Positions 27,692-47,895 of a DNA stretch of 64,000 bases are shown here, one piece after another (the first letter of the stretch is position 1; each line of letters opens with the position of its first letter). This DNA comes from an uncultured Deferribacteres bacterium. GTDB lineage: Bacteria > Zhuqueibacterota > JdFR-76 > DREG01. Under the pieces are notes generated by a model, which was not told the DNA's origin, did not search any database, and saw nothing but the letters and a program-made list of their open reading frames with translations. A program made the position numbers and the translations under genes. Where the stretch lies: the NCBI GenBank assembly GCA_913009825.1, contig CAJVYQ010000005.1, positions 25,265 to 89,264 on the forward strand, written 5' to 3'.

Positions 27692-28024
27692 CTACTTTAT
27701 CCTTTTCAAATTCGGATAAATATTCTGTTTGTGACCGGCTCCCACCATCAGGATCGTTTCTTCCCAGGTCTCGTAACCGTCCAGCGAAATCCGCACCATA
27801 TATTCCCCCTTCCTTAAATTGATGACCAAATTACCGTTTTTATCGGTCATGCCTATAAATTTGCTGTTGAGATACACGTTGGCCTGAGCGTTAAACTCCC
27901 GGTTATCCCGTTTCAGATCGATGGTCAGGCGATTTTCACCCGGCTTTACAACAACTTTGTTGCAGATAAATGAAGAAGAAAACAGGGAGAGAATCAAAAT
28001 GAGAAAAAGAATTTTTGTTTTCAT
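27692..28024 (-). CDS. Small secreted PEGA-domain protein
   Basis: MKTKILFL signal peptide; ANVYLNSKFIGMT...GEYMVRISLDGYETW; start moved to 28024 because the longer ORF runs through a MITE. Confidence 0.75.
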   Translation of the reverse strand: MKTKILFLILILSLFSSSFICNKVVVKPGENRLTIDLKRDNREFNAQANVYLNSKFIGMTDKNGNLVINLRKGEYMVRISLDGYETWEETILMVGAGHKQNIYPNLKRIK

Positions 28025-28048
28025 AAAAATACCGCCATTTAACTCGTA

Positions 28049-28165
28049 CCTTAATTGAGCGATTGTAGGGCGATTCGCTGAATCGCCAATCGGATTTAGT
28101 TTAAAAATGAAAATCCGTTTAGTAATAAAAACAAGCTCAAAAATAAGAGAATCGCTCAATTCAGG
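28049..28165. mobile_element. MITE (CCT-AATTGAGCGATT TIR family)
   Basis: TIRs; 5-bp TSD TCGTA; internal ggcgattcgctgaatcgcc palindrome also at ~20614-20631 and ~52349-52367. Confidence 0.75.
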
Positions 28166-28208
28166 TCGTACAAAAACAGATTTACGAACTTAATTGGATA
28201 TTTTTCGA

Positions 28209-28305
28209 GTATCCGCTCAATAATTGAGGGTAAAAATGAAATATTTGTTAATTAGTGCCTTCGCGACAATTATTCCTCTTCACCGTATACATATTGAGCA
28301 GATAC
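28209..28305. mobile_element. 97-bp MITE GTATCCGCTCAAT...ATTGAGCAGATAC
   Basis: TIR; 8-bp TSD TTTTTCGA (28201-28208 / 28306-28313). Confidence 0.75.
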
Positions 28306-28711
28306 TTTTTCGACTATATTAAAATCGTAAAAACAATTGTTTGATGCAACTACAATTTTGTTAGCATTTTAGGATTCTGAAAATTCTGCCAAACTTCCAT
28401 ACAAGTGTGTAGCTGATCGTGAACGACCCACAGCCTCTTTGCTTTTTCTTGTAAGGATGGGAAATTCCTTTCCCGGCAAGGCCTGTTCCAAGTTGGTGAT
28501 CCGGAAGATCGGAATCTATCGTTACAAAAAAACAATTGAAACAAAAACGAGCCCCAACCGGCGAATAAAACAGATGCATCGTTTGCCGGGGAATAGAGTG
28601 TCACGTTAAAAAAACCTTGAATCAGAGAGAGCCATAAATTATATTTTCACGCACTCAGTAAGGAGTGCCCGTTCAAAAAAGAGTTCAAAATCATTCAAGG
28701 GAACCACATTA

Positions 28712-29965
28712 ATGAGTCAATTCCGCATCAACAAAATCATTATTCATTACGGCGAAATCGGTTTGAAAGGGAAAAACCAGCCTGTCTTTCGCAAGCAGTT
28801 AAAAAGGAATATTCAGCAAAAGCTGAAAACAGCGGCACTGGACTGGCCGGTAACGGAAACACGGGGTTCACTGTCTATCGACGTGCCGGAGTCCGCTGTT
28901 GAGCAGATTGAACAAGCGCGGCAAATTTTGCGGGAAGTGGCGGGAATTGTCTGGTTTGCCCCAGCCGTAAAAACACTTTTTACCGACGGTAATTTCAGTG
29001 ATGGAAATACGAAGCTGAAAAAAATGGCAGAGACGGTTACTCAAATAGCAAACGGGAGAGATGCGGAAGGCAAAACATTTTGCGTCCGGGTGAAACGCAG
29101 CGATAAAAATTTTCCATTCAATTCGCTGCAACTGGAGCGCCGGTTTGGCGCCGCAATTATAGAAAACACCAACTGGAAGAAGGTGAAACTGGACAATCCG
29201 GATGTCACCTTTTCTATTATCGTCCAACCAGGCGCCGCTTTATTTTATGATCAGCGATTTCCGGGGATGGGTGGTTTGCCGGTGGGCACCGTGGGCAAAG
29301 CGCTCACTTTGTTATCCGGCGGTATCGATTCGCCCGTGGCCGCGTTCCTTGCTGCTAAACGGGGCTGCCGGGTTGATTTTATCCACTTCACGGCAACCAC
29401 GATGCAGCAAAAAGAAGCCGCCGCTTACAAGATCACTCAACTGGCACGGGATTTGAGCCATTTTACACTGCGCTCAAAACTGTACCTGGTGCCCTATATT
29501 CATTTCGATATGGCTCTGTTCGGCAAACAGGTTTCTTACGAACTCATCCTCTTCCGCCGCTTCATGGCCCGAACCGCGGCGCGCCTTGCCGGCCGGATCG
29601 ACGCCGAGGTTCTGCTCAGCGGCGACAACCTGGCGCAAGTGGCCTCACAAACCATGTCCAATCTGGTCTCAACATCGAGGGCAATCGGCATGCCCATCCT
29701 GCGCCCGCTCCTGACTTACGACAAACAGGAGATCATCGATCTGGCCAAAAAAATCGGCACCTACCAACTTTCCGTTGAACCGTATAAAGACTGCTGCGCC
29801 ATCATCAGCCGGCATCCAAAAACTAGGTCCAGGCATGAAAATCTGACCCGTTTGGAAGAAGAAATCTTCGCCGGGAAATACGATGATCTGATTGAAAAAA
29901 CTTTACAGGATACGGTTTGTCTGGAATTCCGGGACGGGGAAATGCAAAACTCCGGCGTTAACTGA
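28712..29965 (+). CDS. thiI: tRNA 4-thiouridine synthase ThiI (no rhodanese domain)
   Basis: HYGEIGLKGKN, THUMP domain, LLSGGIDSPVA PP-loop, QVASQT, PYKDCC. Confidence 0.95.
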   Translation: MSQFRINKIIIHYGEIGLKGKNQPVFRKQLKRNIQQKLKTAALDWPVTETRGSLSIDVPESAVEQIEQARQILREVAGIVWFAPAVKTLFTDGNFSDGNTKLKKMAETVTQIANGRDAEGKTFCVRVKRSDKNFPFNSLQLERRFGAAIIENTNWKKVKLDNPDVTFSIIVQPGAALFYDQRFPGMGGLPVGTVGKALTLLSGGIDSPVAAFLAAKRGCRVDFIHFTATTMQQKEAAAYKITQLARDLSHFTLRSKLYLVPYIHFDMALFGKQVSYELILFRRFMARTAARLAGRIDAEVLLSGDNLAQVASQTMSNLVSTSRAIGMPILRPLLTYDKQEIIDLAKKIGTYQLSVEPYKDCCAIISRHPKTRSRHENLTRLEEEIFAGKYDDLIEKTLQDTVCLEFRDGEMQNSGVN

Positions 29966-30049
29966 GCTACAATTTTGAATTAATCCTTCGTCGTTCCTTG
30001 TTCCATAATTCATGTTCAATCTGAATCATGAACTGTGAACCAGATATGG

Positions 30050-30360
30050 GCGACATTTTTTTTAACCAGTCTAATTCGTGTCTGTCCGAAAATACCCACG
30101 ATATTATCATTCCGGCATGTCTGCACAGGCAGGCAATCTGCTTGAAGGCAGCAATGGATTCCCGCTAAAAGCATGCGGGAATGACAAATTCGGACAGCCT
30201 CTAATTCGACCTTTAAACGGCCTGTTTCCTGACAAAGTTTAGCTTGTAATTTCTCGTTCTTAATACTGGAACCGGAAGATGAATTCGTGGAAAATATATC
30301 TTTAATTCCATCTTGAAGTTGTTTCTTCCAATGAGCAATTTGATTGGTGTGAATACCACT
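30050..30360 (-). pseudogene. IS3-family OrfA remnant interrupted by a MITE
   Basis: GIHTNQIAHWKKQL...GRLKVEL|DWLKK is restored after removing 30078-30201 and one TSD copy. Confidence 0.7.
30078..30201. mobile_element. MITE with GTGTCTGTCCGAA TIRs
   Basis: 6-bp TSD TAATTC (30072-30077 / 30202-30207); related to 20405-20562. Confidence 0.85.
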
Positions 30361-30527
30361 CAAGTTTCACATTTATAATAACTCAGGTCTTGTAACTTGT
30401 CGGGATCCGAAAAATACAGTTGTCCGGAATATCTTTTGTTCCATTCTTCGATGTTAATCATCATGTGCATAAAACAAGTATCCGTATGTTTCCGGGACAA
30501 TCCCTGTTCATTGATTCATATCCTGCG

Positions 30528-30740
30528 AGCCCTGAAAGGGCGGAATATACCAGCCCGGGGCAACGCCCCGGGGGAAAAAACAACGGAATCAAGCCCTGAA
30601 GGGGCGGAATACAAAATTCAAATGAACAGACCGTACCGGCACAGGTAAATATTCCGCCCTTTCAGGGCTTGTTATTCTTTTTCCTCTTTCCCCCCCGGGG
30701 CGTTGCCCCGGGCTATTGTATTTCACCCCGTTGGGACGGC
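30528..30740. repeat. REP-like large palindrome (AGCCCTGAAAGGGCG / AGCCCGGGGCAACGCCCC units)
   Basis: Nested inverted repeats; resembles repeats associated with RAYT-type tyrosine transposases. Confidence 0.7.
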
Positions 30741-30766
30741 TGAAAATATATTTTAATTGCTATGTG

Positions 30767-30959
30767 ACAACCAGCACAACATAGGTTACTCTTTTTTGAT
30801 GTCGTAAGTGATATAACACCCTCCCCGTGATTGTTTGTAAGGGAGGGTGTTATATCACTATATAATAATGGTTTATCAGTAATTGAAAAGCATTTGACGG
30901 TAAACTTCATAGTTTGACTTACGTCCTATTAATTAGGTAACCTATGTTGTGCTAGTTGT
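30767..30959. mobile_element. MITE-like element with 23-bp TIRs and an internal 19-bp perfect hairpin
   Basis: acaaccagcacaacataggttac / gtaacctatgttgtgctagttgt (22/23 match); hairpin 30807-30859. Confidence 0.7.
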
Positions 30960-30967
30960 GAACCTAT

Positions 30968-31110
30968 GTGAATATTCTGTATTGTTATATGTTTTTTGTA
31001 TTTCCGGGTCTTTTGAAGCGCTTTGTCCGCTTCCAAAATGACAAACTAAAAAGTTAAAAAATTTTGTATAAAATGCAATAGAAAAAGTGGAAGAGCAGTG
31101 ACTAAAGTTG
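30968..31110 (-). promoter_or_regulatory. Promoter/leader-like ~140-bp repeat, copy 1
   Basis: Similar to 38202-38338; minus strand TTGCAT-N16-TAACTT then AAGCGCTTCAAAAGACCCGGAAA. Confidence 0.5.
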
Positions 31111-31290
31111 AAAAAAACACCAAGCGGTCAGCACTCAGCTATTAGCTTCTACAGGCTTTATTCAGATCAAATACCTTTTTCTTCTCCCAAGCCCGTTCCA
31201 GTTTATTCCGAAATCCTTTAGGCAACCTTTCTCTGGCCGGATAGATTGCAAAGCTGTTTTTATTTAGGTGAAAGTAAAAGTGAGGTATAG

Positions 31291-31445
31291 TTACAAGTTG
31301 AAAGTGACTAAAGTTACGAGTGAACAAAGAACTAAAGATAGAAATTGCCAGTATCCAGTGATTGGTGATCAGTTATGGGTTATCGGAAATCTGTGATTAG
31401 TTGCCAAAACGACCATGCAGCAGAGAGAAGCTGGCAACGAATTGC
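31291..31445. repeat. Short-period spacer repeat block
   Basis: gtgactaaagtt...ttgcc...ggtgatcagttat...ttgccaaaac; closely resembles 39027-39165. Confidence 0.75.
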
Positions 31446-31514
31446 AAAGGATTTTTATTTCATCTCTCGCCAAGCGCGCTACGAGCGCTAAGGCTTTTTA
31501 TGGCCTCGCTGGCG

Positions 31515-31932
31515 TGGCGAGATCATGTATGGCTAAATCTTCTCCGTTACCGATATTTAAATGGGAGATTCCATGGTCGTATAAATCAGGCGCATTCACA
31601 CTTTGGATGAGGTAATAAACGCATCTGCCCGATCGTCCACATGGAGAATTTCTCGGTGAGGTTTGCCGGTGCTCCAAAGTTTAAGATATACTGTCCACGG
31701 TGTATGTTTTATCGATTGATAAAAATGTAATTTCGTAAAATGTTTTCTTATTTCACAGGGCAGGCTCCTCTTTTTTGTATTTTTCCGCTGCCAGCACAAT
31801 TCCTTCAGCCGCATTCGCAACATAAACAAATTCTCTTGAAGCTTTCCCACTTCCCCAGACAGTAACAGTTGGACTGCCATTTGATTTGGCACGCATAAAC
31901 TTTTTGATTAATGCCGGTATAACATGGGAAGC
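31515..31932 (-). pseudogene. fcl: GDP-L-fucose synthase (Fcl/WcaG) internal fragment
   Basis: Manual translation SHVIPALIKKF...LWSTGKPHREILHVDDRADA...HLNIGNGEDLAIHDLA, with frameshifts. Confidence 0.75.
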
Positions 31933-31937
31933 GTATA

Positions 31938-32085
31938 GTGAACTAAAGCAAGGGAGCAGTGACTAAAGTTTAAAGTGCCTAAAGTTGGAATTTGCCTGAA
32001 TCTGTGATTGTTTATAGGTGATCAGTGATCCTTTATCTGCTGCGAATACTGCAAAGTAACAGAACAGTGCCGGCAATTTGTTGTG
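31938..32085. repeat. Short-period spacer repeat block
   Basis: gagcagtgactaaagtttaaagtgcctaaagttggaatttgcc...ggtgatcagtgat. Confidence 0.75.
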
Positions 32086-32118
32086 TTGTTATTTTACATA
32101 AAATGGTCTTTTGTAACG

Positions 32119-32361
32119 TTACACATACCATCTTAAATATTTTAATTCCAAATAAGATTTTTTCTCGTGTATTGTTTTTTCGCCTAAATATTTTCTTGGA
32201 TTCCCACACATCCAATATGAACAAGGTTTAGGTGTATTAATACTGAGACCAAGCTGTTTTTTATTTTTATTATATCCCCAATATTGTTTGGTAATTCTCT
32301 TGTTTTTTAATCTCCGGTATTGGTTTCTTCTAAATGCTCGCTTTGGTACAATATTTAACAT
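32119..32361 (-). CDS. Small basic hypothetical protein with a TPKPCSxWMCGNPRK motif
   Basis: Arg/Lys-rich 80-aa ORF co-oriented with the nucleotidyltransferase gene. Confidence 0.6.
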   Translation of the reverse strand: MLNIVPKRAFRRNQYRRLKNKRITKQYWGYNKNKKQLGLSINTPKPCSYWMCGNPRKYLGEKTIHEKKSYLELKYLRWYV

Positions 32362-32374
32362 AATGAATTAGATG

Positions 32375-32824
32375 CTAATTACCTTTCTTCGTTTTCTTTA
32401 ATCTTTCTAAATAGTTCAAATCTTCGATATCTTTAGGTCTTTTTGCTGCTTTTTTTATCTTTATCAAAGAATCCAAAGCTGCAAAGTATGTTTTTACATT
32501 TTTATATCGTTCTTCAACTTTATGTTCCCACACTTCCTCAAATGTAATACCTTTTACGAATGGATGAATATCAGTTTCCACAGAATATTGACGAATTAAA
32601 ATTTTAGTTCTTAATAAATCAGTCTCAGTAAGTTCAGTTAAATCATAACCAAATTGTTCCAATGCTTTTTTGGTTCGCCTTGCATTTTCAAGCGAATTTT
32701 CAATAAAGATGTCAATATCTAAAGTTGCCCGAATATAGCCATGCACAGGGAACGCAGAAGCGCCAATAATCACATATTTTACTTTATGTTCGTTTAATAA
32801 TTTGAGTAGTTTTTGGGTATTCAT
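32375..32824 (-). CDS. Minimal nucleotidyltransferase-like protein (DUF6036-like, TA-associated)
   Basis: YVIIGASA..HGYIRATLDIDI and LIKIKKAAKRPKDIEDL. Confidence 0.85.
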   Translation of the reverse strand: MNTQKLLKLLNEHKVKYVIIGASAFPVHGYIRATLDIDIFIENSLENARRTKKALEQFGYDLTELTETDLLRTKILIRQYSVETDIHPFVKGITFEEVWEHKVEERYKNVKTYFAALDSLIKIKKAAKRPKDIEDLNYLERLKKTKKGN

Positions 32825-32966
32825 TCTTTTTTAAAAATGATCTGATAAAACTATTTTTTTCTTCCATCATTTCGAAACGTTGCTTCAATGGTAAAGACAG
32901 AAGATAATTTATTTCAAATTCAATCTCTTTTTCTTCGTTGTGTTCTTTTAATTTAAGGATTGGCAT
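32784..32966 (-). CDS. Small partner protein of the nucleotidyltransferase (antitoxin-like)
   Basis: 60-aa ORF overlapping the NTase start; YLLSLPLKQRFEM pattern. Confidence 0.65.
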   Translation of the reverse strand: MPILKLKEHNEEKEIEFEINYLLSLPLKQRFEMMEEKNSFIRSFLKKNEYPKTTQIIKRT

Positions 32967-33010
32967 AAATGTAGTGGATAAATAAAATCGCGTGATTGTT
33001 CTTCAGAAGA

Positions 33011-33145
33011 TCAGTGACTAAAATTACAAGTGCCTAAAGTGACCTAAAATTAAAAATTGCCGGTATTTTTATTGGGTGATCGATAATCAATTGCGTAAAT
33101 AGCCGCGCAACACGATGCAAGTGGTGAAAGCCAGTAATTTGTTCT
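33011..33145. repeat. Short-period spacer repeat block
   Basis: cagtgactaaaattacaagtgcctaaagtgacctaaaatt...ttgccgg...ggtgatcgataatc. Confidence 0.7.
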
Positions 33146-33285
33146 TCAGCTTAATTCTTCCTTGAAAATCGGGTTTAAATCTTTGAGCGCTCTTTAGGGC
33201 CCAGATCTTTCGGGATCCTTTTTGTTAATAGCCTGTGGGTTTACTTTCAGGCGGTGAGAAAACGAAAAAAAATAAAGATAAAAGT

Positions 33286-35229
33286 GACGCATTCGTAAAA
33301 AGTAAAATCACTATTTGAAATATTTTAGCCAAATTTGACTATTGAGATCTAATTTAATCCTAATTCACTGATTTTTTATTGTTCTTCGAAAATTTCGATT
33401 TTATTTCCCTCTGATTTGTGCGGAGACAAGTAAATTATCACCCAATTAAGCAACATTCAGGGCAATTTCTCTATTTTCGGGCACACTAATCCCATGTTGT
33501 AATTGATACTGTGCTGCTCTAAATAGATTTATTCCCAGAGCCTTTAACCTTGCAGCATAACTAATTTTTGGTAACCCTCGATAATTTAATCGTCTGGCCC
33601 CGGTCATATGGATATATCGGGAATTAGTAGCTTCTATACCTGACCGATAACGATATTTTTCTTTGAACTCTTTACTCTGTTCATATTGTCGGCGAAGCAT
33701 CGTGTGAATTTCTTCTCTGGTATAGTTTAAAAGATAACCCGATTTCCCTGGTCTTACCGGACAGATGTCCTGACCCGGACAATTTCCGCAGAACGATTCT
33801 GACCAGATCGCAGTAATAGAACCTTTTTTGTTATATTTTATCTTCTCTGGTTTATGTCCACAACGACATTTCCGAATTTCTTCTGTTTGTTCATCTACTG
33901 TGAAAACCGACAAATCTTTTTGGGGCTTTCTACCTGGTACCGGTGCGATCAAATCCACACCATATTTTTTTGCCTTTTGGTTGTTTGTTTCACTCCCATA
34001 AGAGGTGTCGGCGGCCAGTTGGTCGGGTAATAAATCTCTGTCTTTGACATCTGCTAAAGCAGGCTCCAGAGCGCCACTATCATGTTTATGAGCCGGTTCT
34101 ACCTCTACATAAGTAAGCAATTCCAGTGAGGGTTTGTCGGATTTCTCTTGGCTTGCTCCAGGCTCTCCCTTCGTTTTAGGCGTGTATGTTTCCATGATTT
34201 GAACCTGATAACCCTGTCCTTTATGACCATCATAAGTCGCATCGGCATCCGATGGATTCTGCAGACTATCTGATGAAATCTCACTGGATTCTTTGACAAT
34301 GATCTTATCTTCCTCAATGCGACATTGCTCGGAAAACACCCGCTGAAGAAGCGTATAACTATACATCGAAACTACACAGTCATGTTCAGAAAAATGGCTA
34401 AGCAAGGTATGTAAATCGGTTGCAATTTCTTCCAAGCGTTTACGGGAACCGGATGGCTTTACATTACCAAAATAAGTATCATCTTCTTCTTTCTCATAAC
34501 GTACCCGCAACTCTTGCAATGAGGAATCGAAATATAAATCCTTGTGATGACGTTTTAAATTCTTTAAAAATGTGGTTATTGTGCGACTTAATAAACGCAC
34601 CCGCCCTAACTGAGCCATGTTGGACTGAATATGAACTGAATCAAGACGTTGTAAACGACTATCTACATGATAAACGTCAGCCAACTTATCGGCTGATTTC
34701 GAAAATGTCTCTTTCGCTAAGTTATCATTAACCAAGATATTTCGCATGCTCCACAATGTCTTCAGTGATACAACATGATCCTTTGGATTAAAACTGTCTA
34801 ACGCGTAATGCCATTGTTCATTAAATGCCAATTGATCTCGTGTCTCGATGTCGCTTAAATCAAACACTTGTTGAAATACGCACGCTCCAACCACCGTAAC
34901 TAATTCTTTCGTCGGACGACCCATCGTTTTAGAGAAGTGTTGACTGACCGCATGTATCGGTAAGGTCTCTAAAAGATGATCTCGAAACACTCCCGCCCAC
35001 GAGGATTTGAGAAGTTTGATCTTTCGTTCATTTAAAATGCCACCCCAAGATTCCATGCCGGGGAAACATGAATTGTCACGTGTTTTAATCTCTACCATTC
35101 TTTATCTTATCCTTCTGTTTTATATGATGATAAGATAAGTCTTTTTATTGTTAAATGCAATAGCTATTATTGTTTAACTTAATTATTATTAATTGCTTAG
35201 AATAGTTTATGACTTTTTACGAATGCATC
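33286..35229 (-). mobile_element. Complete 1944-bp insertion sequence (IS1182/IS5-like DDE)
   Basis: TIRs GAYGCATTCGTAAAAAGT; 6-bp TSD AAAAGT (33280-33285 / 35230-35235). Confidence 0.9.
33446..35098 (-). CDS. DDE transposase
   Basis: GRPTK, QRLDSVHIQSNM, SLQNPSDADATY, ADTSYGS, Cys-rich insert, YRYRSGIEATNS. Confidence 0.92.
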   Translation of the reverse strand: MVEIKTRDNSCFPGMESWGGILNERKIKLLKSSWAGVFRDHLLETLPIHAVSQHFSKTMGRPTKELVTVVGACVFQQVFDLSDIETRDQLAFNEQWHYALDSFNPKDHVVSLKTLWSMRNILVNDNLAKETFSKSADKLADVYHVDSRLQRLDSVHIQSNMAQLGRVRLLSRTITTFLKNLKRHHKDLYFDSSLQELRVRYEKEEDDTYFGNVKPSGSRKRLEEIATDLHTLLSHFSEHDCVVSMYSYTLLQRVFSEQCRIEEDKIIVKESSEISSDSLQNPSDADATYDGHKGQGYQVQIMETYTPKTKGEPGASQEKSDKPSLELLTYVEVEPAHKHDSGALEPALADVKDRDLLPDQLAADTSYGSETNNQKAKKYGVDLIAPVPGRKPQKDLSVFTVDEQTEEIRKCRCGHKPEKIKYNKKGSITAIWSESFCGNCPGQDICPVRPGKSGYLLNYTREEIHTMLRRQYEQSKEFKEKYRYRSGIEATNSRYIHMTGARRLNYRGLPKISYAARLKALGINLFRAAQYQLQHGISVPENREIALNVA

Positions 35230-35439
35230 AAAAGTGACTAAAGTTTATAAAACAAGATTAAAGAGCGAAGATTAAAAACCATTAAAACTATATGGCTACT
35301 GATAAGTCTGCAATTGCACAAAATTTGTAGTGAATTTGTCGAAGAATTATCATTGCACAATGATGGCATAGATCAAATCCTTGTACAGAAACTCCTGCTC
35401 CACCATTGATTCTGATACAACAGTCTGCGGTTCCACACT

Positions 35440-35703
35440 CTAAGCAATGGCAACTTTAGGTTTAAGCAGCCTTAATTTGGCTGGTTTGAGGCCTTTCACT
35501 TTTATATAAACTACCTTTTGGTCTGGCTCTCTTTGTCTCTCGGCTAACTGTTTACTCCACTTATTATATTCTTGATCTCCTTCAACCTGAAGAACTATCT
35601 GGGCATTTCGTGGTATTTTCATTTCAAATTCAGGATGCTCTATCACGTATCGGTCAAATTCCGTTACCAATATGGCATGTTTTTTCTCTAAGATATTCAT
35701 CAT
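35440..35703 (-). CDS. DUF5647-like antitoxin candidate
   Basis: EFDRYVIEHPEF...IPRNAQIV pattern; directly downstream of an RYDxAHG gene. Confidence 0.75.
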   Translation of the reverse strand: MMNILEKKHAILVTEFDRYVIEHPEFEMKIPRNAQIVLQVEGDQEYNKWSKQLAERQREPDQKVVYIKVKGLKPAKLRLLKPKVAIA

Positions 35704-35707
35704 TTAG

Positions 35708-36003
35708 TTACCCTTTAGAAAAGCGGTAAATCTTCCAATTTCCCTTTATATCTTCATCTGCCAAAATCAAGGCTTCGCTGAGTTTCAAATTGAGTTCCTC
35801 TTTGATCTTTCTTCCATCCGGATAGTATCGGTCTATATGAGCAAAGCCGTGAGCGGAATCATAACGAATGACTACCTGCCATCAATCGTCAACTAAAACT
35901 TCCAATTGAGCGATAAAACCGATAACCCTACCTTTATCTGTTTCATGATAATCCTCTTGCGCGCATTCTCGCCCAAAGGAATTACATACTCAATAATCCT
36001 CAA
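35708..36003 (-). pseudogene. Toxin-like RYDxAHG protein (DUF7718-like), with a frameshift and an internal stop
   Basis: Manual translation ...FIAQLEVLVDD*WQVVIRYDSAHGFAHIDRYYPDG...DIKGNWKIY. Confidence 0.7.
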
Positions 36004-36174
36004 ATCCCGGTTACCTCAGGTTTTGTTTTGTCCGGATTTGTGAAGAAAGGACAGGAGAGGAAAGGAGAAAGTAAAACTGAAAACGGAAAATAATGTAACT
36101 GCGAGAAAGGCGCGCTTGCCCAACGTCTTTCTGGTGGGTTGGTTTGGCGGGAAAAACACGAAATAATAAAAATT

Positions 36175-36270
36175 AGTGACTAAAGTTAAAAATGATTAAA
36201 GTGACTAAAGTAAAAGAGCAGTGACTGAAATTGTAAGTTGTCGGTGATAGGTTATCGGTTTAAAATCTGA
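36175..36270. repeat. Short-period spacer repeat block
   Basis: agtgactaaagttaaaaatgattaaagtgactaaagtaaaagagcagtgactgaa...ggtgataggttatcgg. Confidence 0.75.
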
Positions 36271-36490
36271 ACCGAGCGGTGACTTAAGCGCATGAAGTTA
36301 AGAAACAAGAATAAAGATAACAAAACTATGGTTACAAGCGCCAAAGGATTAGAAATAAATCAAAGATTAACTCTCATTTTTCTATCTCTCTTCTATCTGT
36401 GCCAACTTTTCATTCTTTTTCTTAGTTCTTTAATCTTGCATTTTGATACTTGCTTCCCGGCAATGTCTTTCACCCATGGAAATTTCAAAA

Positions 36491-36700
36491 TTATCTTTCA
36501 TTTACTTTACCCTTTCTATCTTTCACGGCTAATTGACTTAATTTATTTACTCCCATATCATCAAAAAGATCTTTTTGCCATTTAGTATAATCAAATGGCT
36601 CACACAATAAAAGGGAGATGAATTTTTCAGCATCTACTTTTCCCATTTTCTGAGCAAGAATTTGTATTCCTTTAATTTTTATTTCAGTCTCTGTTAACAT
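36491..36700 (-). CDS. Small antitoxin-like protein (family usually next to a PIN-domain gene)
   Basis: TETEIKIKG...GKVDAEKFI...EPFDYTKWQ motif. Confidence 0.7.
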   Translation of the reverse strand: MLTETEIKIKGIQILAQKMGKVDAEKFISLLLCEPFDYTKWQKDLFDDMGVNKLSQLAVKDRKGKVNER

Positions 36701-36889
36701 GAATTATTTCTCTAATATTGATGGCAACAATAATTAACCACCGGGAACATCCGCTAAAAAGACTAGGGGTTGGCGGTAGGCACCGAAATTTTAATTTTTA
36801 CATAAATTTGAGAGATACTCATGTCTTTCAGCCTGCAGATGGTGATTTTAGGCTGATAAATACTCAGTTAAAGTAATAATTAAACAACC

Positions 36890-37126
36890 TTATATTGAGG
36901 CAATAGTTGAATAATTTGAAGTTTGAAAAGATATATTCACTTCACCTTGTTTTATAAGATTTTTTACCGTAGCATTTCTAAACTCTATTGTAACCGGATT
37001 CCCTTGCTTGCCATAGCTTATTATAACTCCGCCCGGTTCCTCTAAAGCATCGACTGGGGGATCATCACTGATACCTATTAATAATATATCTGATTCCGGA
37101 TCATATTTGAATCTCATATTAAGCAT
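36890..37126 (-). CDS. DUF2283 protein (antitoxin-like)
   Basis: MRFKYDPESDILLI...GNPVTIEFRNA; start at 37126 or 37117. Confidence 0.8.
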   Translation of the reverse strand: MLNMRFKYDPESDILLIGISDDPPVDALEEPGGVIISYGKQGNPVTIEFRNATVKNLIKQGEVNISFQTSNYSTIASI

Positions 37127-37385
37127 TTCTCCAATATTTTTCAATTTTGCTGGTATGATATAGCGTTAGAATTTTACGACTGCCATTAATTTCTATGAAT
37201 GGCACTCTCATTAAACCATTTTTATATTTTGATTGGGCAATTAGATCTTCTCCATCTCCCGGTACAATCTGGTTTGGTCTTTTAATTATTTCTTCGATAT
37301 CTTTTTTTAAAGGATAATTTGTGATAACAATTAACCGATCTTTTTCTACAAAATAAATAATTTTAAATGGAAATTGAAAATCATT
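37119..37385 (-). pseudogene. DUF4258/RelE-like toxin remnant, apparently chimeric and lacking a true start
   Basis: FPFKIIYFVEKDRLIVITNYPL joined to KDIEEIIKRPNQIV...KILTLYHTSKIEKYW; ORF N-terminus derives from repeat DNA. Confidence 0.55.
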
Positions 37386-37759
37386 CTGCTTCTTGAGATA
37401 TTTACACACCAAGTTGGTTAAAAAAGAGCAAGTAAAAAGTAAAAAGGCAAAAGTGAAAAAAAAGAGCAAGAGCCTGAAGAAATTTTAACCACGAAATACA
37501 CGAATAGAGAAAAGTAAGAAGGAGGGAGTGAGAAGTAAGAAAATAAACAAAAGATCAAAGAAATATCGCCCGCGAATGTTGCGAATAGAGAAAGACGTCA
37601 CGATTAAAGATTGCTCAATATATTTCTCCATTATTTATCTTGTTTTTGTTTTTTTTCCAGGTAATAAATTTAAATTTCAACCCAGTTGTTGAGTTTTAGC
37701 AGTTATTCGTAAAACGCCTGGCACTACTTATAACTTTTTTACTTTCTACTTTTGACTTT

Positions 37760-38080
37760 TTATTTCTCTTCCAGCGCGGTTATTCTTTTTTCATGTCTAA
37801 GAAGCGCAGAATTGGTGGTTACTTGTTCTGTTCTGATGACATCCAATTCTTTAACTATTTTATCTTGCCCAGTGATTATGATATTCATTATATTCTTGAG
37901 GTCATTTGCATCATTTTTGATCTCATTGACCTCGGTTTTGATTTCATTGACCTCGGTTTTGATCTCATTGACCTCGGTTTTGATTTCATTGACTTCGCTT
38001 TTCTTAGCCACATCGTTCATTACATATTCTGCAAGTGTTTCTAACAATGCGTGAATTTTTTCAATTGTTATTTTTGACAT
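37760..38080 (-). CDS. Coiled-coil hypothetical protein with an (EVNEIKT)x4 tandem repeat
   Basis: 21-bp tandem repeat at ~37915-37998; RBS-like AGGGCGG. Confidence 0.75.
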   Translation of the reverse strand: MSKITIEKIHALLETLAEYVMNDVAKKSEVNEIKTEVNEIKTEVNEIKTEVNEIKNDANDLKNIMNIIITGQDKIVKELDVIRTEQVTTNSALLRHEKRITALEEK

Positions 38081-38142
38081 ATTGGCCGCCCTTTTTATAA
38101 ACGTTAAATTTTTCTGTGGAGAGGAACCAAATGAATACTCAA

Positions 38143-38156
38143 TTTACAGCTCCGCC
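38143..38156 (-). promoter_or_regulatory. ops-like motif GGCGGAGCTGTAAA, copy 2
   Basis: Identical 14-mer to 44126-44139 upstream of upxY. Confidence 0.5.
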
Positions 38157-38201
38157 ATATAACTCACATAAATGAAAGAGATAGCAAGCAGATTTGCACT
38201 G

Positions 38202-38338
38202 AGAATATTGTGTATTATATTTTTTTATTTTTCCGGGTCTTTTGCAGCGCTTCAGCCCACCCCAAAATGATAAGTTAAAAAGATAAAATATTTGTAATAA
38301 AATTCAATAGGGAAATGCGGAAGAGCAGTGATTAAAGT
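38202..38338 (-). promoter_or_regulatory. Promoter/leader-like ~140-bp repeat, copy 2
   Basis: TTGAAT-N16-TATCTT then AAGCGCTGCAAAAGACCCGGAAA; similar to 30968-31110. Confidence 0.5.
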
Positions 38339-38384
38339 GAACTAAAGTAAAAAGTAAAAGGGCAAAAGTAAAAAGTTTTTTATC

Positions 38385-38959
38385 TTATTTTGGAATTTTT
38401 AATTTTGGCTTTGTTTTTGAATTTTTAGCAACTTTAGTTGAGATTGAACCAAGAATTTTCTTTAGCTGGAAGACTCATCTATCAGTCGGGCAGTTTTGGT
38501 CTTATCCGCTATATTAGTTGCTAAAATTAATCTCACTAGTAATTTGACTCTCTCATTTCTTCTAACGATATATCCACCTTACTTTTAAAGTCAGCTCTTG
38601 ATGAAGCAGCTTGCGCCTCTTCGTAATTAGTGCCTGAACGAAAAGTATCTAAATTGTATATCAAACATCTTGTTTGAATTATAATCTTATTGAAAAGAAG
38701 GAAACTAAACAGTTTATAAAACAAGCAAGATGCATGTTTTCCACTTTTCGTTCAGACACTAATTAGCACCAGATGAAGTTGCTGCCTTAGTTAACTGATA
38801 GCGGATAACATCAGATTCAGGACTTCTTTTCATTGTTCGTAGAAGATTTATCACATCTATAGCAAAATCGAATAGTCTCTTTTGCAAAGAAACGGAATAT
38901 GTTTTCTTTAATTCATTAATTGAATCTGCTTCATATAATTTTTCTTCCATTTGCCTCAT
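38385..38959 (-). pseudogene. Four-helix-bundle protein (23S rRNA IVP / TIGR02436-like), disrupted
   Basis: LQKRLFDFAIDVI...QLTKAATSSGAN|YEEAQAASSRADFKSKVDISLEEMRESNY*...ESSQLKKILGSI; split by the MITE at 38630-38759 and by a further stop/frameshift. Confidence 0.88.
38630..38759. mobile_element. 130-bp MITE GTGCCTGAACGAAAAGT...ACTTTTCGTTCAGACAC
   Basis: TIR; 6-bp TSD TAATTA; second copy at 47136-47698. Confidence 0.9.
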
Positions 38960-39026
38960 CTTTTGCCTTTTTACTCTTGCCCTCTCTCGCGTTATTTTTT
39001 CTTAATTGTATGTTTAAGGTTAAAAA

Positions 39027-39165
39027 TAGCAACTAAAGTTTAAAGTGCCTAAAGTGAGGTAAAGTTGGAAGTTGCCGGCAGCCGGTGATCAGTTATCGGT
39101 CATCGGTCATCGGTGATCAGTTGCCAAAACAGCCGTGCAGAATGGAGAAACTGATAGCGAATGGC
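39027..39165. repeat. Short-period spacer repeat block
   Basis: actaaagtttaaagtgcctaaagtgaggtaaagtt...ggtgatcagttatcggtcatcggtcatcggtgatcagttgccaaaacagccgtgcag. Confidence 0.8.
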
Positions 39166-39380
39166 TGTATTTCTTAGATTAAATCGCAACTCCGTCTCCT
39201 GTTGGTTCAACTCACCGCTCAGTCATGTAAATCACATGGATGTAAGACATAGCAAATATTTATGAGTTTGTTGATGTACAACAAAAAAGCTGCCAAAGTT
39301 TTTTATCACTCCTGCAAATTTTCAGGATTTCCAGGTACTTTAGGTGTTGACTTGACAGCAAACAATCACAGAAAAAGGGT

Positions 39381-40619
39381 TCAATTTCCGGCAATAATAT
39401 CTGCCAGAACATGGACAATTCTTTCCGCAGCATTTCCGTCCCAATATTTTATTTTAGCCGGACGGACGTGATTTAGTTTCAGCATATTTTGCGCATCTGC
39501 AACAATTGCTTCCCGGCGTAAAGGGACCAGTTTATTCGTACCCGCGCGGATTGTAATTGGGCGTTCCGTATTAGGCCGCAGTGTGAGACAGGGCACACCG
39601 AGATAACTGGTTTCTTCCTGTATGCCGCCGGAATCGGTAAGCACCAGCGCCGCCCTGGTCTGTAGATGAAGAAAATCCAAATACCCGATTGGCTCTGTAA
39701 ACAGAATCTCACTGCTATCAATTTTACGGCGCAAAGATTCACCCGACTGGGCTAACAATTTCCTCGTCCGGGGATGTACCGGAAAAATCACGGGGATTTC
39801 TTTGCTGATTTCCGTCAGGGCAGTTACGATGGCCGTCAACATCGGTGGATCATCTACATTACTGGGCCGGTGCAGCGTAACCAGGGCATATCGCCGGATG
39901 CTTCCGTTCCCGTCACGATGGGCTGCCAATTCGTCCAAAATAGTGGACTTCTCAGATCTGTTCAGATAAAATTGCAGAGAATCGATCATCACATTTCCGA
40001 CGAAAAATATCTTGCGTGTATCGAAACCCTCTGCAATCAGATTCTCATCACCGTCGACGCATGTGGTAAATAACAGATCGGACAGAGAATCCGTAATAGT
40101 GCGATTAATTTCTTCCGGCATGTCGGAATCAAAGCTGCGCAGCCCCGCTTCCACATGGGCAATCAGAGGCCGGTCGTTCGACTGTTTCTTTGATTGTTGT
40201 AGAGCTGTAATATTACGGGAAGCAATGTATTGGTCATAATTTGTCCAACATTTATGTAACCGGTCTGAACCATATCGAATTTTTGCCGCTGTTAAAGAAC
40301 AAGCAAGAGTTGAATTTACATCCCCGACTAAAATCAATAATTCCGGTTTGAGCCGCTCGAGTTCCCGCTCAAACTTTTTCATTACTTCGGCGGTCTGAAC
40401 CGCATGGCTGCCGGAACCAACTCCCAGATAAATATGAGGTTTGGGTAGTTCCAGATCGTCAAAAAATATTTTCGACATCTTTTCATCGTAATGCTGGCCT
40501 GTATGCAGAATGATCGGTTCGAACAGCTCCGCGTATTTTTTCATCTCCTTGTAAATAGGCGCTATTTTCATAAAATTCGGCCGCGCGCCGACGATAAGAA
40601 ATATTCTTCGTTTGGGCAT
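39381..40619 (-). CDS. wecB: UDP-N-acetylglucosamine 2-epimerase (non-hydrolysing; WecB/WbpI family)
   Basis: VGARPNFMK, HTGQHYD, VGDVNST, HVEAGLRS, MPEEINR, TDSGGIQEE. Confidence 0.93.
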   Translation of the reverse strand: MPKRRIFLIVGARPNFMKIAPIYKEMKKYAELFEPIILHTGQHYDEKMSKIFFDDLELPKPHIYLGVGSGSHAVQTAEVMKKFERELERLKPELLILVGDVNSTLACSLTAAKIRYGSDRLHKCWTNYDQYIASRNITALQQSKKQSNDRPLIAHVEAGLRSFDSDMPEEINRTITDSLSDLLFTTCVDGDENLIAEGFDTRKIFFVGNVMIDSLQFYLNRSEKSTILDELAAHRDGNGSIRRYALVTLHRPSNVDDPPMLTAIVTALTEISKEIPVIFPVHPRTRKLLAQSGESLRRKIDSSEILFTEPIGYLDFLHLQTRAALVLTDSGGIQEETSYLGVPCLTLRPNTERPITIRAGTNKLVPLRREAIVADAQNMLKLNHVRPAKIKYWDGNAAERIVHVLADIIAGN

Positions 40620-40637
40620 AGGGTACTCTTTCTTTTT

Positions 40638-40783
40638 GTAACTCTTATTGTTTGATATGCAGGAAGCCTTCGACCGAGTTTATCCCGAGCTTGATGGAAG
40701 GGCTCAGGCCGGCTTAAATAGCCATGCTTAGCGGTGTCGAAACGTGATTACAGCTAATTCACAGAGCATACCTGAGTAGTTAC
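40638..40783. mobile_element. MITE of the GTAACTAYTCAG family with a REP-like core
   Basis: Ends in cctgagtagttac; body is the reverse complement of 53688-53843 and 46775-46949. Confidence 0.75.
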
Positions 40784-40922
40784 TAATTCCTCTAAAAATT
40801 AACTTCCCGTCCCCTTAAGTCAACAACATTGGGGGAGAAGTACGGGTGTCTAAAAAAACTGAAAAACAAAAATAAGCCTTACAGAAAATCAAATAACCCG
40901 GTGATTGGTTACGCACACCTCA

Positions 40923-42566
40923 TCATTTTCCATCAACCCGTTTAACCGGTTTGTCTTCATCCCAATCCAGACATTTCAGCACGCCGGGCTTAACTTCCCG
41001 GTAGCGCCACCCACTTTTCGGGCAAATCATGATTCCTTTTTCATCCTGTTCAGGCAACCTGGCGCCGTGACGACTTATCCAGCCGATTCTGCGCGCCGGC
41101 ACGCCGGCCATCAGCGCATACCCGGGCACATCTTTTGTCACCACCGCACCGGCGGCGATGAAAGCAAATCGACCGATAGTGTTGCCGCAGACAATGGTGG
41201 CATTGGCACCGATGGATGCGCCGTACTTCACCAGCGTTTCGTTATAAAATTCAGCGCCGCGCTGCGGGAATTCACAGCGCGGTTCCATGATATTGGTAAA
41301 AACCATGGATGGGCCGCAAAATACGTAATCCTCTAATTCCACACCTTCGTAAACAGAAACATTGTTTTGTATTTTGCAATAATTACCAATTTTTACGTGA
41401 TTGCCTAAGTTTACATTCTGTCCCAGCGTGCAATTTTTACCAATTTCCGAACCGCCTTGTACGTGCGAAAAATGCCATATTTTTGTCCCGGCGCCGATTT
41501 TCACACCTTCATCCACAATCGCCAGGGGATGGATGAAATAGCCGGTTTTATCTTCCTTTTCAATCCCGGACTTTTCCACACTTCGGTTCAATTTGCCGTT
41601 CATGCTCTTCGTTGCGCTCTCTAAAATATCAAGCACTTCAACCCCATTCCGGCCGTCGGCGATTTCGATGGGAGCGCCATCCAGATGGTCAACAAAATAT
41701 TTCATCTCTTCGGTCAACGCCATCGCCGGATTATAAGGGATCACATCTGTCGGACCGTCCCGTTTTATCGGTTCACCCTTTATCCAATCGATCCCTTTTT
41801 CATAGAACAAAATCTGCTTTTCCCGGCTGGAATCTTCAAAAGAGAGCATCCCTCTCGAACCGATCACGACCAGACGCTGTTCTTTAAACGGATGCAGCCA
41901 GCTCACAAAAATATGCGCCACAATGTTACCTGGATATTTCAAGGTGGTTAACGTAGTATCATCAATATCCGGCTGTAAAAAAGCACCGCCGCGAGAAAGG
42001 ATCTCGACCGGATTTGCTCCGATCAAGTATTGAAAAATGGAAATATCGTGGGGCGCAAAACTCCATAATATATTTTCTTCCGTCCGAACCGTGCCCAGAT
42101 TGAGGCGATTGCTGTAGAGATATTGCAGCCGGCCGATTTTGCCGTTATCGATCCATTCTTTAATTTTCCGAATTGCAGGATGAAAAAGTAAAACATGCCC
42201 CACCATCAGGTTAACCTGATGGTCTTCCGCCGTTTTTTTCAGTTTCCGGGCTTCAGCGGCAGTCAGGGCCAGCGGTTTTTCCACTAATACATGATTTTTA
42301 TGTTCAAGTAAAAAAGAGGCAATCTCAAAATGTGTCTCCGCAGGCGTGGCCACGGTGAAACCGTCAAAGTCAGTCTCGATCGCATCCCGGTAATTCCTGA
42401 ACATCTCAACGTCCGGGTATCGTTGGGAAAATTCGGTGTTAATCTTATCATCCTGTTCGACAATACCGCCAAGACAGCCCAGCGAATGCAGGGTTTTGAT
42501 ATGATTTCTCCCCCATCTTCCGGCGCCGATGGTACAAACTCTCATTTTTTTTATCGATTCACTCAT
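40923..42566 (-). CDS. Fused Gfo/Idh/MocA oxidoreductase (WbpB/WlbA-like) and hexapeptide N-acetyltransferase (WbpD/WlbB-like)
   Basis: IGAGRWG, VEKP, MVGH, FAPHD; then KIWHFSH, CKIQNNVSVYEGV, FCGPSMVFTN, GVPARRIGW; start moved to 42566 because the upstream ORF part lies in a MITE. Confidence 0.88.
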   Translation of the reverse strand: MSESIKKMRVCTIGAGRWGRNHIKTLHSLGCLGGIVEQDDKINTEFSQRYPDVEMFRNYRDAIETDFDGFTVATPAETHFEIASFLLEHKNHVLVEKPLALTAAEARKLKKTAEDHQVNLMVGHVLLFHPAIRKIKEWIDNGKIGRLQYLYSNRLNLGTVRTEENILWSFAPHDISIFQYLIGANPVEILSRGGAFLQPDIDDTTLTTLKYPGNIVAHIFVSWLHPFKEQRLVVIGSRGMLSFEDSSREKQILFYEKGIDWIKGEPIKRDGPTDVIPYNPAMALTEEMKYFVDHLDGAPIEIADGRNGVEVLDILESATKSMNGKLNRSVEKSGIEKEDKTGYFIHPLAIVDEGVKIGAGTKIWHFSHVQGGSEIGKNCTLGQNVNLGNHVKIGNYCKIQNNVSVYEGVELEDYVFCGPSMVFTNIMEPRCEFPQRGAEFYNETLVKYGASIGANATIVCGNTIGRFAFIAAGAVVTKDVPGYALMAGVPARRIGWISRHGARLPEQDEKGIMICPKSGWRYREVKPGVLKCLDWDEDKPVKRVDGK

Positions 42567-43179: not shown

Positions 43180-43588
43180 TTGCCCTTAAAATATTTTCTT
43201 CTACAATACGCTTGATTTTATCACGAATTTCAGAATCAAGTAATTCTATACCGGGATTGTTCTGATGCGGGCGAATGTTAATCAACGCCGTAAACTCTAT
43301 TCTTTTTCCCGGATACTGCCGGGGATAGAAATTTACACCCCACAAATCTTCCTGCATACTCCCTTCCTGCAGCAGCATCTCTTCCCCATCTGCATGCAAA
43401 TCGCCGCCAACGGCAATTCTTTTCCGCTCGATATCTACCACCAATTTTACCATGTCGCCAAACCAGGCGTTACATAAGGAACGTAATGCCTGTGCCGATA
43501 TCTTATCGCCGATAATTTGGATCGATTGATCATGCAACGGAAAGTCCTGAATTTTACGCCTGCGTTTCCCACAAGCAGGCACTTTCAT
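43163..43588 (-). CDS. DUF5674-like protein
   Basis: MVKLVVDI...HADGE..LL..GS.QEDLWGVN...ALINIRP. Confidence 0.8.
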   Translation of the reverse strand: MKVPACGKRRRKIQDFPLHDQSIQIIGDKISAQALRSLCNAWFGDMVKLVVDIERKRIAVGGDLHADGEEMLLQEGSMQEDLWGVNFYPRQYPGKRIEFTALINIRPHQNNPGIELLDSEIRDKIKRIVEENILRANEELV

Positions 43589-44097
43589 CCCAGCTTGCGC
43601 AACAGGCCGGGATCGATTTCCACAGATAAAGATTGACGAATGGCATCAATGGTGATGACAAACCGGCGCTTGTTTCTCTTCTCTATCAATTTTCCTTTGA
43701 TGCCGGCAAACGTACCTTGAGTGACCTCGACAGCATCTCCATATTGTAGATAATCGCACGGCCCAACAGAGGCGCCTCCCTCCATCAATCTCCGGATCGA
43801 GTCGATCTGATCATCCGGGATAACAGATGGTTTACCGCCAAACCTGACCATGCGCACAACCCCGTCCACACGCAGAGAACTGATCCGATCCCGGGGAGAC
43901 ACGTGGACAAATACATAGCCGCGAAACAAAGGTTCTTTTATTTTTTTCTTCCGGTCACTCCATTGCCGAATAACCGTTTGCAAAGGAAGATAAGTTTCGA
44001 TCTCTTTTTCATCCAATTGCACCTCTACCTTTTTTTCAAAGCGCGGCCGGGTGTAAAGGGCGTACCAATTCAACTTAGTTTCAGCTTGTTCCAACAA
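43585..44097 (-). CDS. upxY: UpxY-family (NusG paralog) transcription antiterminator
   Basis: WYALYTRPRFEKKV, WSDRKKK, PLFRGYVFV, KOW motif GDAVEVTQGTFAG; TTG start with RBS. Confidence 0.92.
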   Translation of the reverse strand: MLEQAETKLNWYALYTRPRFEKKVEVQLDEKEIETYLPLQTVIRQWSDRKKKIKEPLFRGYVFVHVSPRDRISSLRVDGVVRMVRFGGKPSVIPDDQIDSIRRLMEGGASVGPCDYLQYGDAVEVTQGTFAGIKGKLIEKRNKRRFVITIDAIRQSLSVEIDPGLLRKLG

Positions 44098-47698: not shown

Positions 47699-47895
47699 TA
47701 TAATTACCGCAGTTCAAAAACAAATAGAAGATAAAAGAATCAGATACAATAATGATTAATCATGAATGATTCTGTTTATTAATTTAATTTCCAAAGTTTC
47801 CCCGGGGGTGGTTGTCTCAAGTACAGAATCATTCAATTTAGGATTGACTAAAATGTAAAATTTTTCACATTAAAAGCACCCAAAAAACATTCGCA

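Follow-up and report, generated by a model that had tools for sequence, protein, structure and literature searches.

What fills the space between the convergent ends of thiI and wecB in contig CAJVYQ010000005.1, and how did it come to be there? The window analysed here is a stretch of 64,000 nt of this 124-kb contig (C5), part of a 123-contig metagenome assembly, and at this place it carries an array of short genes and gene fragments separated by direct repeats. The original prediction took the array for an integron-analogous platform, on which small genes would be gained and lost at the repeats. One part of that description stands, namely a zone of piled-up, foreign small genes with direct repeats between them; the specific platform does not, as the repeat words occur genome-wide and the repeats do not fold. 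Had it been an integron analogue, the array would have represented a gene-capture system of a new kind, a claim for which the evidence is not sufficient. Our analysis suggests that the stretch is probably the eroded tail of a polysaccharide operon that has been filled with selfish DNA, in which a composite repeat arm has been copied locally and ordinary recombination reshuffles the copies. The case illustrates how ordinary selfish elements, in an operon that is decaying, can leave small genes separated by a row of direct repeats, and it calls for caution over similar predictions.

Composite repeat units in the array

With up to one mismatch allowed, the word GTGACTAAAGT has 11 matches in the window, all of them on the plus strand and all within 31098-39055; shuffled sequences gave a mean of 0.60 matches and never more than 3. 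The matches group into eight blocks (31098, 31304, 31959/31975, 33014/33030, 35234, 36176/36201, 38328 and 39045), five of which align as a single ordered composite unit (U1 to U5 in Table 1). The unit begins with K words (GTGAnCTAAAGT), followed by TTGCC, D words (GGTGATCAG or GTTATCGG), TTGCCAAAAC and then about 35 shared bases, this last extension being common to U1, U3 and U5. The predicted set of at least eight blocks in one orientation, with an ordered unit of about 140 bp, is therefore borne out. The plus strand carries all the K and D words of the locus, and the units stand in direct orientation with the K sense strand antisense to the flanking genes. Between pairs of units, identity ranges over 48-75% for the K part and over 21-74% for the D part; U1 and U5 share 74% in the D part and 69% in the extension. 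The K part of U2, U3 and U5 corresponds to the arm consensus that is found across phyla (see below).

Neither a word search nor an nhmmer search of the minus strand with E values up to 10 found an inverted K partner within the window, no inverted repeats were found within the units, and an Rfam scan of 28000-42000 at E up to 1 placed no family on them. The possibility that TTGCCAAAAC and the next 35 bases are simply the 3' end of an epimerase gene was rejected: U5 has the same bases without an epimerase fragment, and the fragment present in the array stops about 55 codons before the full-length end, as judged from the usual length of the enzyme. One of the remaining blocks belongs to an element of about 145 bp ending in one K word (c95a), which is 79% identical over 143 nt to a second copy at 38200-38338 (c95b) and has no further copy in the genome. 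Another is a K block split by an insertion sequence (IS) into 33260-33284 and 35231-35290. The original prediction listed the blocks at 33280 and 35230 together and missed the IS with its 550-aa DDE transposase. Some of the gaps between units hold modules of two or three genes, and others hold gene fragments.

The DNA of the array has a GC content of 0.30-0.37, compared with 0.435 genome-wide. Its notable open reading frames (ORFs) are short and all lie on the minus strand, as had been predicted and as the ORF list confirms. Upstream of wecB, which encodes a UDP-GlcNAc 2-epimerase, the operon contains just one further enzyme gene, a NusG-family gene and a Wzc-like gene. The original prediction placed the array under UpxY antitermination; the NusG-family gene (43585-44097) is indeed located upstream, and transcripts might read through from there into the array. 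With so few genes upstream of wecB, the polysaccharide locus looks truncated, and the epimerase fragments in the array look like its remains.

The unit words as arms of four-helix-bundle cassettes

The words from which the units are built recur in this genome around genes of the four-helix-bundle family of 23S rRNA intervening sequence (IVS) proteins. There are seven PF05635 matches in the genome, and complementary word arrays lie on both flanks of five of them as well as of the broken copy in the window; of the two matches that lack arms, one is a truncated copy and the other a remnant on contig C7. Each flanked copy has a different arm word. The copy on contig C17 has K-word arms and the copy at C3:65991 has D-type arms. 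K words are thus the arm of one four-helix-bundle cassette lineage that is shared across phyla, and D words are the arm type of another lineage in the same genome. A relative from the same family (G001) has K arms around a four-helix-bundle gene and an empty K hairpin nearby. The K-lineage genes at C17:65252-65545 and in G001 (1908-2201) each contain an internal stop codon, and on that ground both may be dead. The part of the literature on PF05635 and 23S intervening-sequence four-helix-bundle proteins that was covered yielded no description of word arrays around these genes.

The copy in the window, which the original prediction had labelled a four-helix bundle, turns out to be a broken pseudogene. 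Its two halves match TIGR02436 at positions 2-41 (22.4 bits) and 40-70 (23.1 bits), both just below the cut-off of 24, and its frameshifts were read by eye from the sequence. The gene is split by a miniature inverted-repeat transposable element (MITE) of 142 bp, whose 23-nt ends are 96% complementary and which is carried by about 40 contigs of the genome, mostly at 92-100% identity. A further site of this MITE lies at 47585-47700 in the window. Four AAGTAAAAAG-type arrays in alternating orientation (37419, 37736, 38345 and 38960) enclose, in turn, a gene-less stretch of 270 nt, a coiled-coil gene and the four-helix-bundle pseudogene.

K arrays elsewhere in the genome

A search of all contigs with the unit profile found the full composite unit nowhere else in the genome, whereas its K half is present as about 23 arms on about 17 sites outside the locus. 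At 13 of the 17 sites the start of the K array falls between -12 and +39 nt relative to the stop codon of an ORF that has the same orientation and a length of 160 aa or more; 120 of 5000 random positions do so. Ten of the 13 upstream ORFs were scanned; nine have Pfam hits, all to ordinary genes, examples being a class-I tRNA synthetase, a 2-hydroxyacid dehydrogenase, a lumazine-binding protein of the riboflavin synthase type and an FGGY kinase. None of the ten is a polysaccharide gene. Several of the arrays have an inverted copy 60-760 nt further on. The placement next to stop codons holds for the K arrays outside the locus; it is untrue of the blocks inside it.

Word arrays are thus a general intergenic repeat kind of this genome, located after stops, often paired with an inverted copy into a long hairpin, and sometimes enclosing a four-helix-bundle gene. 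The original prediction held that repeats scattered genome-wide with no link to cassettes would speak against it. The scatter is real; the lack of a link is not, as elsewhere the arms bracket small cassettes. Another hairpin family of 8-nt words, ACGCAGAG / CTCTGCGT, with a 21-nt loop, occurs at 47362-47426 in the window and at dozens of other places in the genome, and accounts for the majority of the 76 inverted-partnered arrays among the 288 arrays examined.

Contigs C93 (11352-11471) and C69 (1472-1591) are 100% identical over 120 nt, through a gene end and a K array, and part exactly where the array ends on its inner side; this is a fork between strains at the edge of a repeat. Contig C7:1-12000 is a second locus of the kind seen in the window, a sugar-nucleotide operon that still has its genes intact (NTP_transferase, GHMP kinase, SIS-HAD and epimerase), with selfish content before and between them: two DUF4258/DUF2283 pairs, a TumE toxin gene, a GIY-YIG gene and the four-helix-bundle remnant, accompanied by tandem 85-bp hairpins and word arrays. 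One of the DUF2283 pairs lies between inverted AATGATG arms and also between direct repeats of about 30 nt (338-372 and 1285-1312). By analogy, the C7 locus may be a picture of the locus in the window before its operon genes decayed.

Spread of the K arm across phyla

An exact K 24-mer common to U2 and U5 was searched in a species-representative collection of 596 billion bases. It is present in 57 stretches from 41 assemblies, compared with about 0.004 expected by chance according to our own arithmetic. The titles of these records include Desulfobacterales, Syntrophales, Syntrophorhabdus, Bacteroidales, Prolixibacteraceae, Scalindua, a PVC-group bacterium and others; mis-binned contigs may inflate this list of phyla, the main point being unaffected. 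One metagenome-assembled genome (MAG; JAUWGF01 records) holds five of the 57 stretches. An inverted partner lies within 1.5 kb in 27 of the 57, mostly 30-190 nt away, and 28 of 55 stretches follow the stop of an ORF, against 102 of 1100 random positions. Many of them are gene-less hairpins of about 150 nt with related loops, the loop being sometimes inverted. A four-helix-bundle gene was found within 1.2 kb of the match in one of the 57 stretches, and a second stretch has one between K arms further off.

Four-helix-bundle proteins encoded inside K arms come from four genomes (this one, G001, a Bacteroidales MAG and a Syntrophorhabdus MAG). They are 61-65% identical to the C17 copy and 30-39% identical to the C3 and C45 copies. 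Since the K-arm proteins are closer to the C17 copy than to those on C3 and C45, arm and protein lineages travel together.

The composite unit, in which K and D words are joined, shows no such spread. It was not found in any of the 57 K-bearing stretches, in 30 relatives (the class has only 10 other genomes, none of the same genus) or in 33 metagenome stretches that fit a loose structural pattern. As candidate copies of the unit the latter were rejected, none of them matching the unit profile, and they are taken as chance matches.

These observations add several details to what can be said of hairpin-flanked four-helix-bundle cassettes: in one arm family an exact 24-mer has been kept in several phyla, copies with no gene or with a single arm are located only a few bases from stop codons, each arm lineage goes with a protein lineage, and small addiction-type modules may be enclosed by arms. 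Together they make the question of what moves these elements more testable.

Comparison with known systems

Integrons and clusters of attC sites lacking integrases (CALINs) resemble the array in having small, mostly promoter-less and unrelated genes in one orientation, with a recurring site between them, downstream of a promoter-bearing region. The attC sites are folding imperfect palindromes, however, and the units here do not fold: with all five units folded on the minus strand, U5 and U1 also on the plus strand, and 200 shuffles for each, z values ranged from -2.01 to +1.35, so that no attC-like fold better than that of the shuffles was found. The attC consensus is RYYYAAC / GTTRRRY, and GGCAAC / GTTGCC does not appear to fit it by eye. 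The contig encodes neither IntI, which a CALIN does not require, nor any other tyrosine recombinase; the five PF00589 matches of the genome are all on other contigs. The sole enzyme gene of a recombination kind in the array is that of the IS DDE transposase. Also unlike attC sites, the words of the unit are found genome-wide at ordinary gene ends, and the unit itself is found in no other genome searched.

ORF-bearing intervening sequences of 23S rRNA encode S23p proteins (PF05635). The hairpin-flanked four-helix-bundle cassettes described above, with inverted arrays of 7-11-nt words around a PF05635 gene, include the copy at 38395-38959, and the K and D words of the units are the arm words of two such cassettes. 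The five units differ from these cassettes in that they have no inverted partner, enclose no four-helix-bundle gene, and join two arm families head to tail in direct orientation.

Repetitive extragenic palindromic (REP) elements and bacterial interspersed mosaic elements (BIMEs) are mobilised by REP-associated tyrosine transposases (RAYTs) of the Y1 kind. They too are short intergenic hairpins just after stops, clustered and sometimes alternating, as at 37419-38990, with many gene-less copies; the arms here differ in being tandem word arrays and not a fixed palindrome. A link to RAYTs was rejected, as none of the five intact PF01797 (Y1) genes has a K array within 450 nt, and those genes are flanked by other hairpins.

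Variable polysaccharide loci may contain islands rich in toxin-antitoxin genes, and a related case is the exchange of genes through flanking homology, as by the 'minimal mobile elements' of Neisseria. Like these, the array has small addiction-type modules in a region of low GC and variable content, and any exchange of modules would go by ordinary recombination at conserved flanks, with no dedicated enzyme. It differs in that the flanks here would be units of 130-190 bp inside the locus and not housekeeping genes.

Strain variation at the locus

Joins in Logan contigs of other sequencing runs indicate that the array is not the same in all strains. A 1978-nt contig of another study has a diverged copy of the coiled-coil gene joined via 18 bases to 30752-32270, with 5 differences in 1519. 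The join from 38190 to 30964, at c95, is present in two runs (side 52); these two joins have the best support. A join between word blocks, from 35276 to 31289, is present in three runs. In three runs a second coiled-coil gene lies to the left of c95a, which is a segmental duplication of the gene together with c95 in other strains. At its left edge the assembled array may represent a strain variant, or else sequence mis-joined within a repeat. This edge lies in a repeat, 30732-30859 matching part of contig C9 at 97.7% identity. Within the coiled-coil gene, the repeat region is replaced by 151 different bases in another run and thus varies between strains.

Several other joins were discounted as strain breakpoints. 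These are the short-sided joins at K words (31977-38333, side 24; 31424-38139, side 27; 37451-37736, side 22; 37736-38284, side 28), the K-word joins without side lengths (31977-31090, 31983-31939 and 31985-31962) and loose ends at word arrays. They were not counted because the same words are present in many co-occurring organisms, and contigs of foreign origin would be aligned through nothing but these words. Parts of the array that lack cover in runs X3 and X4 were likewise left aside.

Two runs contain independent contigs that agree with long parts of the array at 0-4 differences: 31037-31975 (c95a, U1 and the epimerase fragments) and 38886-39474 (an arm, U5 and the end of wecB), and further 33113-33472 (into the IS), 38160-38657 and 36601-37235. 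The joins table contains no contig that spans U2, U3 or U4 on both sides.

Origin of the array

In the reading that we consider probable, one half-element would have arisen once in the operon, consisting of a K arm, a D array grown or inserted between two TTGCC, and about 35 inner bases. This half-element would then have multiplied at the locus through segmental duplication and unequal crossing-over; that such duplication happens at the locus is indicated by the duplicated c95 and the second copy of the coiled-coil gene. Modules may have landed between unit copies or been swapped between them, and the direct copies would provide homology for ordinary (RecA-type) recombination, which could lead to deletion, duplication and reshuffling between strains. 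The modules would persist through their addictiveness and not by way of a dedicated capture enzyme. A number of points weigh against this reading. Hairpin biology alone fails to explain five composites in the same orientation, each between modules, at one locus, and this layout is what site-based accretion would give. The fork between C93 and C69 suggests that arms are boundaries of exchangeable DNA, and alternative joins occur in other runs both at c95 and at the word blocks. Local duplication of the unit is our own proposal; the K parts could stem from separate insertions, and it is the D part and the extension alone that favour common descent. The failure to find the composite elsewhere is weak evidence, given ten genomes of the class, none from the same genus, and a metagenome scan by one strict pattern. 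Finally, with no contig across U2 to U4, the order of the modules is that of one assembly path.

If the units were specific recombination sites for a recombinase encoded elsewhere, with the operon promoter and the NusG-like antiterminator expressing the cassettes, one would expect much of what is seen: five ordered units in one orientation between gene modules, modules that are mutually unrelated, low in GC and foreign-looking, a NusG-family gene at the head of the operon, and alternative joins at the repeats in other runs, along with the C93/C69 divergence exactly at the edge of a K array. We nevertheless regard such an integron-like platform as improbable. The units have no hairpin fold, none of the five PF00589 matches is on the contig, and K words are present beside housekeeping genes throughout the genome and in many phyla, and the composite was found in none of 30 relatives, 33 metagenome stretches and 57 K stretches. 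Moreover, the units are only 21-75% identical and apart from the words have no conserved core, several of the cassette genes are dead, some modules comprise two or three genes, and some gaps contain gene fragments. Serial independent insertion is a further explanation, to which we give a somewhat better, still low, chance: a K hairpin and then a D element would have entered successive spacers of the operon, the operon direction would have fixed their orientation, and the genes and proximal arms would have been lost later. It agrees with the fixed orientation of K arrays at gene ends elsewhere (13 of 17), with the C7 sugar operon, where selfish modules and arrays occupy nearly every spacer between intact genes, and with the K part of U2 and U5 being the cross-phylum 24-mer and the epimerase fragments abutting U1 and U2. 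It would, however, require five separate formations of the K-then-D composite, with TTGCC and the 35-nt extension, at this one locus and none at about 17 other K sites, and the loss of the same arm in all five; the orientation is also contrary to the rule, the K sense strand being antisense to the genes that flank the units. The module order might even be a chimeric path through a repeat-rich metagenome graph, such that no genome has this array. This is suggested by the 123-contig metagenome assembly, the alternative joins in other runs, the left edge inside a repeat and the three runs that place the second coiled-coil gene to the left of c95a. We regard such an artefact as improbable, too, given the 0-4 differences over long stretches in the independent contigs of two runs; in addition, the longest word that K blocks have in common is a 24-mer, shorter than the assembler word of 31. 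A bolder reading is that word-array hairpin cassettes, each with a cognate four-helix-bundle protein, form a cross-phylum mobile class that lands after stops and whose arms are true joints, in which case the composite arm here could be a portable recombination site for integrase-free exchange of modules, and the locus a cassette exchanger of a novel type; we put this forward as a speculation that is unlikely to hold.

Genes between the units and flanking features

The coordinates of the units, the arms and the genes are collected in Table 1.

Table 1. Repeat units, cassette arms, genes and insertions at the thiI-wecB locus, in order of position in the window
Feature	Position	Strand	Remarks
c95a, element of about 145 bp ending in one K word (block 1)	30964..31113	+	Paralogue of 38190-38338
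U1 (K words, TTGCC, D words, TTGCCAAAAC, extension)	31262..31450	+	Profile E 3.6e-23
Two overlapping NAD-dependent epimerase (fcl-like) fragments, frameshifted and truncated	31470..31930	-	Pfam Epimerase 2.6e-10 for 31756-31926; three-frame translation
U2 (degenerate end part)	31940..32075	+	Profile E 1.1e-23
Three-gene module: 80-aa ORF, DUF6036/DUF2204 nucleotidyltransferase (32375-32824), overlapping 60-aa partner ORF	32119..32966	-	Family hit for the nucleotidyltransferase
U3 (short D part)	32995..33140	+	Profile E 3.5e-20
IS with DDE transposase (550 aa, 33446-35098)	33285..35230	-	Inserted into K word
Two-gene module: DUF5647 (35440-35703, intact) and DUF7718 (35711-35989, in-frame TGA, pseudogene)	35440..35989	-	Pfam
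U4 (three K words, D part nearly lost)	36155..36270	+	Profile E 2.3e-12
69-aa ORF without family, DUF2283 gene (36890-37144), truncated or chimeric DUF4258-like gene (37119-37469)	36491..37469	-	
AAGTAAAAAG-type word array	37419..37470	+	First of four in alternating orientation
Inverted AAGTAAAAAG-type array	37736..37765	-	Pairs with 37419-37445 (78%) and 38345-38374 (80%)
106-aa coiled-coil gene	37760..38080	-	4.2 copies of 21-nt repeat (37915-38002); between inverted word arrays
c95b, K words and AAGTAAAAAG array	38190..38376	+	3' arm of four-helix-bundle cassette
Four-helix-bundle (23S rRNA IVS protein family) pseudogene	38395..38959	-	Split by 142-bp MITE 38624-38765, frameshifted downstream
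CTTTTGCCTTTTTAC words	38960..38990	-	5' arm of four-helix-bundle cassette; 17 nt, 94% complementary to 38359-38375
U5 (most complete, closest to all other units)	39010..39165	+	Profile E 1.5e-30
Dispersed repeat of about 64 bp	39255..39318		Spacer below wecB; 26 genome matches at 77-86%
wecB (UDP-GlcNAc 2-epimerase)	39381..40619	-	Last intact operon gene; Pfam Epimerase_2, 1.8e-99
NusG-family gene	43585-44097		Heads operon, upstream of array

The array modules are mutually unrelated and have no paralogues in the genome, except for the DUF2283 and nucleotidyltransferase families. The pairs observed are DUF2283 with the truncated DUF4258-like gene, DUF5647 with the DUF7718 pseudogene, and the DUF6036 nucleotidyltransferase with the overlapping 60-aa ORF. 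To judge from these gene families and their pairing, the modules are probably of the addiction (toxin-antitoxin-like) type. PADLOC reported no defence system, giving just weak coiled-coil matches for the 106-aa gene, and the part of the literature that was covered yielded no paper on DUF4258 together with DUF2283. At least four of the array genes are broken. Alongside the modules, the stretch contains the IS, two MITE families and the two epimerase fragments.

Among the labels that the original prediction had given to these genes, DUF2283, DUF5647 and the nucleotidyltransferase are upheld, and the supposed PIN partner and Cys-motif protein have no family. The DUF4258 label is intermediate: the gene has no Pfam hit, and its C-terminal half alone matches, in a pairwise comparison, the DUF4258 gene of contig C7 (E 1e-7). 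The N-terminal part is missing, and the gene is accordingly described as truncated. The 80-aa and 60-aa ORFs beside the nucleotidyltransferase have no family in the scans. The fcl fragment, which was said to break off at a block edge, is in fact two overlapping fragments, one within about 15 nt of U2 and the other ending about 50 nt from U1.

The IS is 1.9 kb long and has inverted ends of 19 nt (33285-33303/35212-35230) that are 95% complementary, and partial copies of it are present on three other contigs. Its transposase contains DDE_Tnp_1_6 (1.3e-13), DDE_Tnp_1 and DUF772 domains, and from this make-up we take the element to be IS1182-like.

At the right-hand end of the array, a search for synteny in relatives by way of wecB gave a best match of 58% identity and no orthologous locus. 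Relative to four relatives of the same order, whose matches split at this point, WecB has an insert of about 27 residues (about 120-147); the protein of one relative from the same phylum (58% identity) aligns through the insert region. The insert is no repeat of its own genome.

Beyond the left-hand end there is a match to the Acido-Lenti-1 RNA of Rfam at 30528-30572 on the minus strand (44 bits, the gathering score being 37), with a weaker second match at 30694-30732. Several GCCCTGAAAGGGC-type inverted repeats surround it (30528-30730). Next to these lies a MITE-like repeat of about 200 bp (30762-30968) with inverted ends of 43 nt, which has at least five further copies on contigs C30, C16, C80 and C9; a 65-aa ORF at 30713-30910 is part of this repeat.

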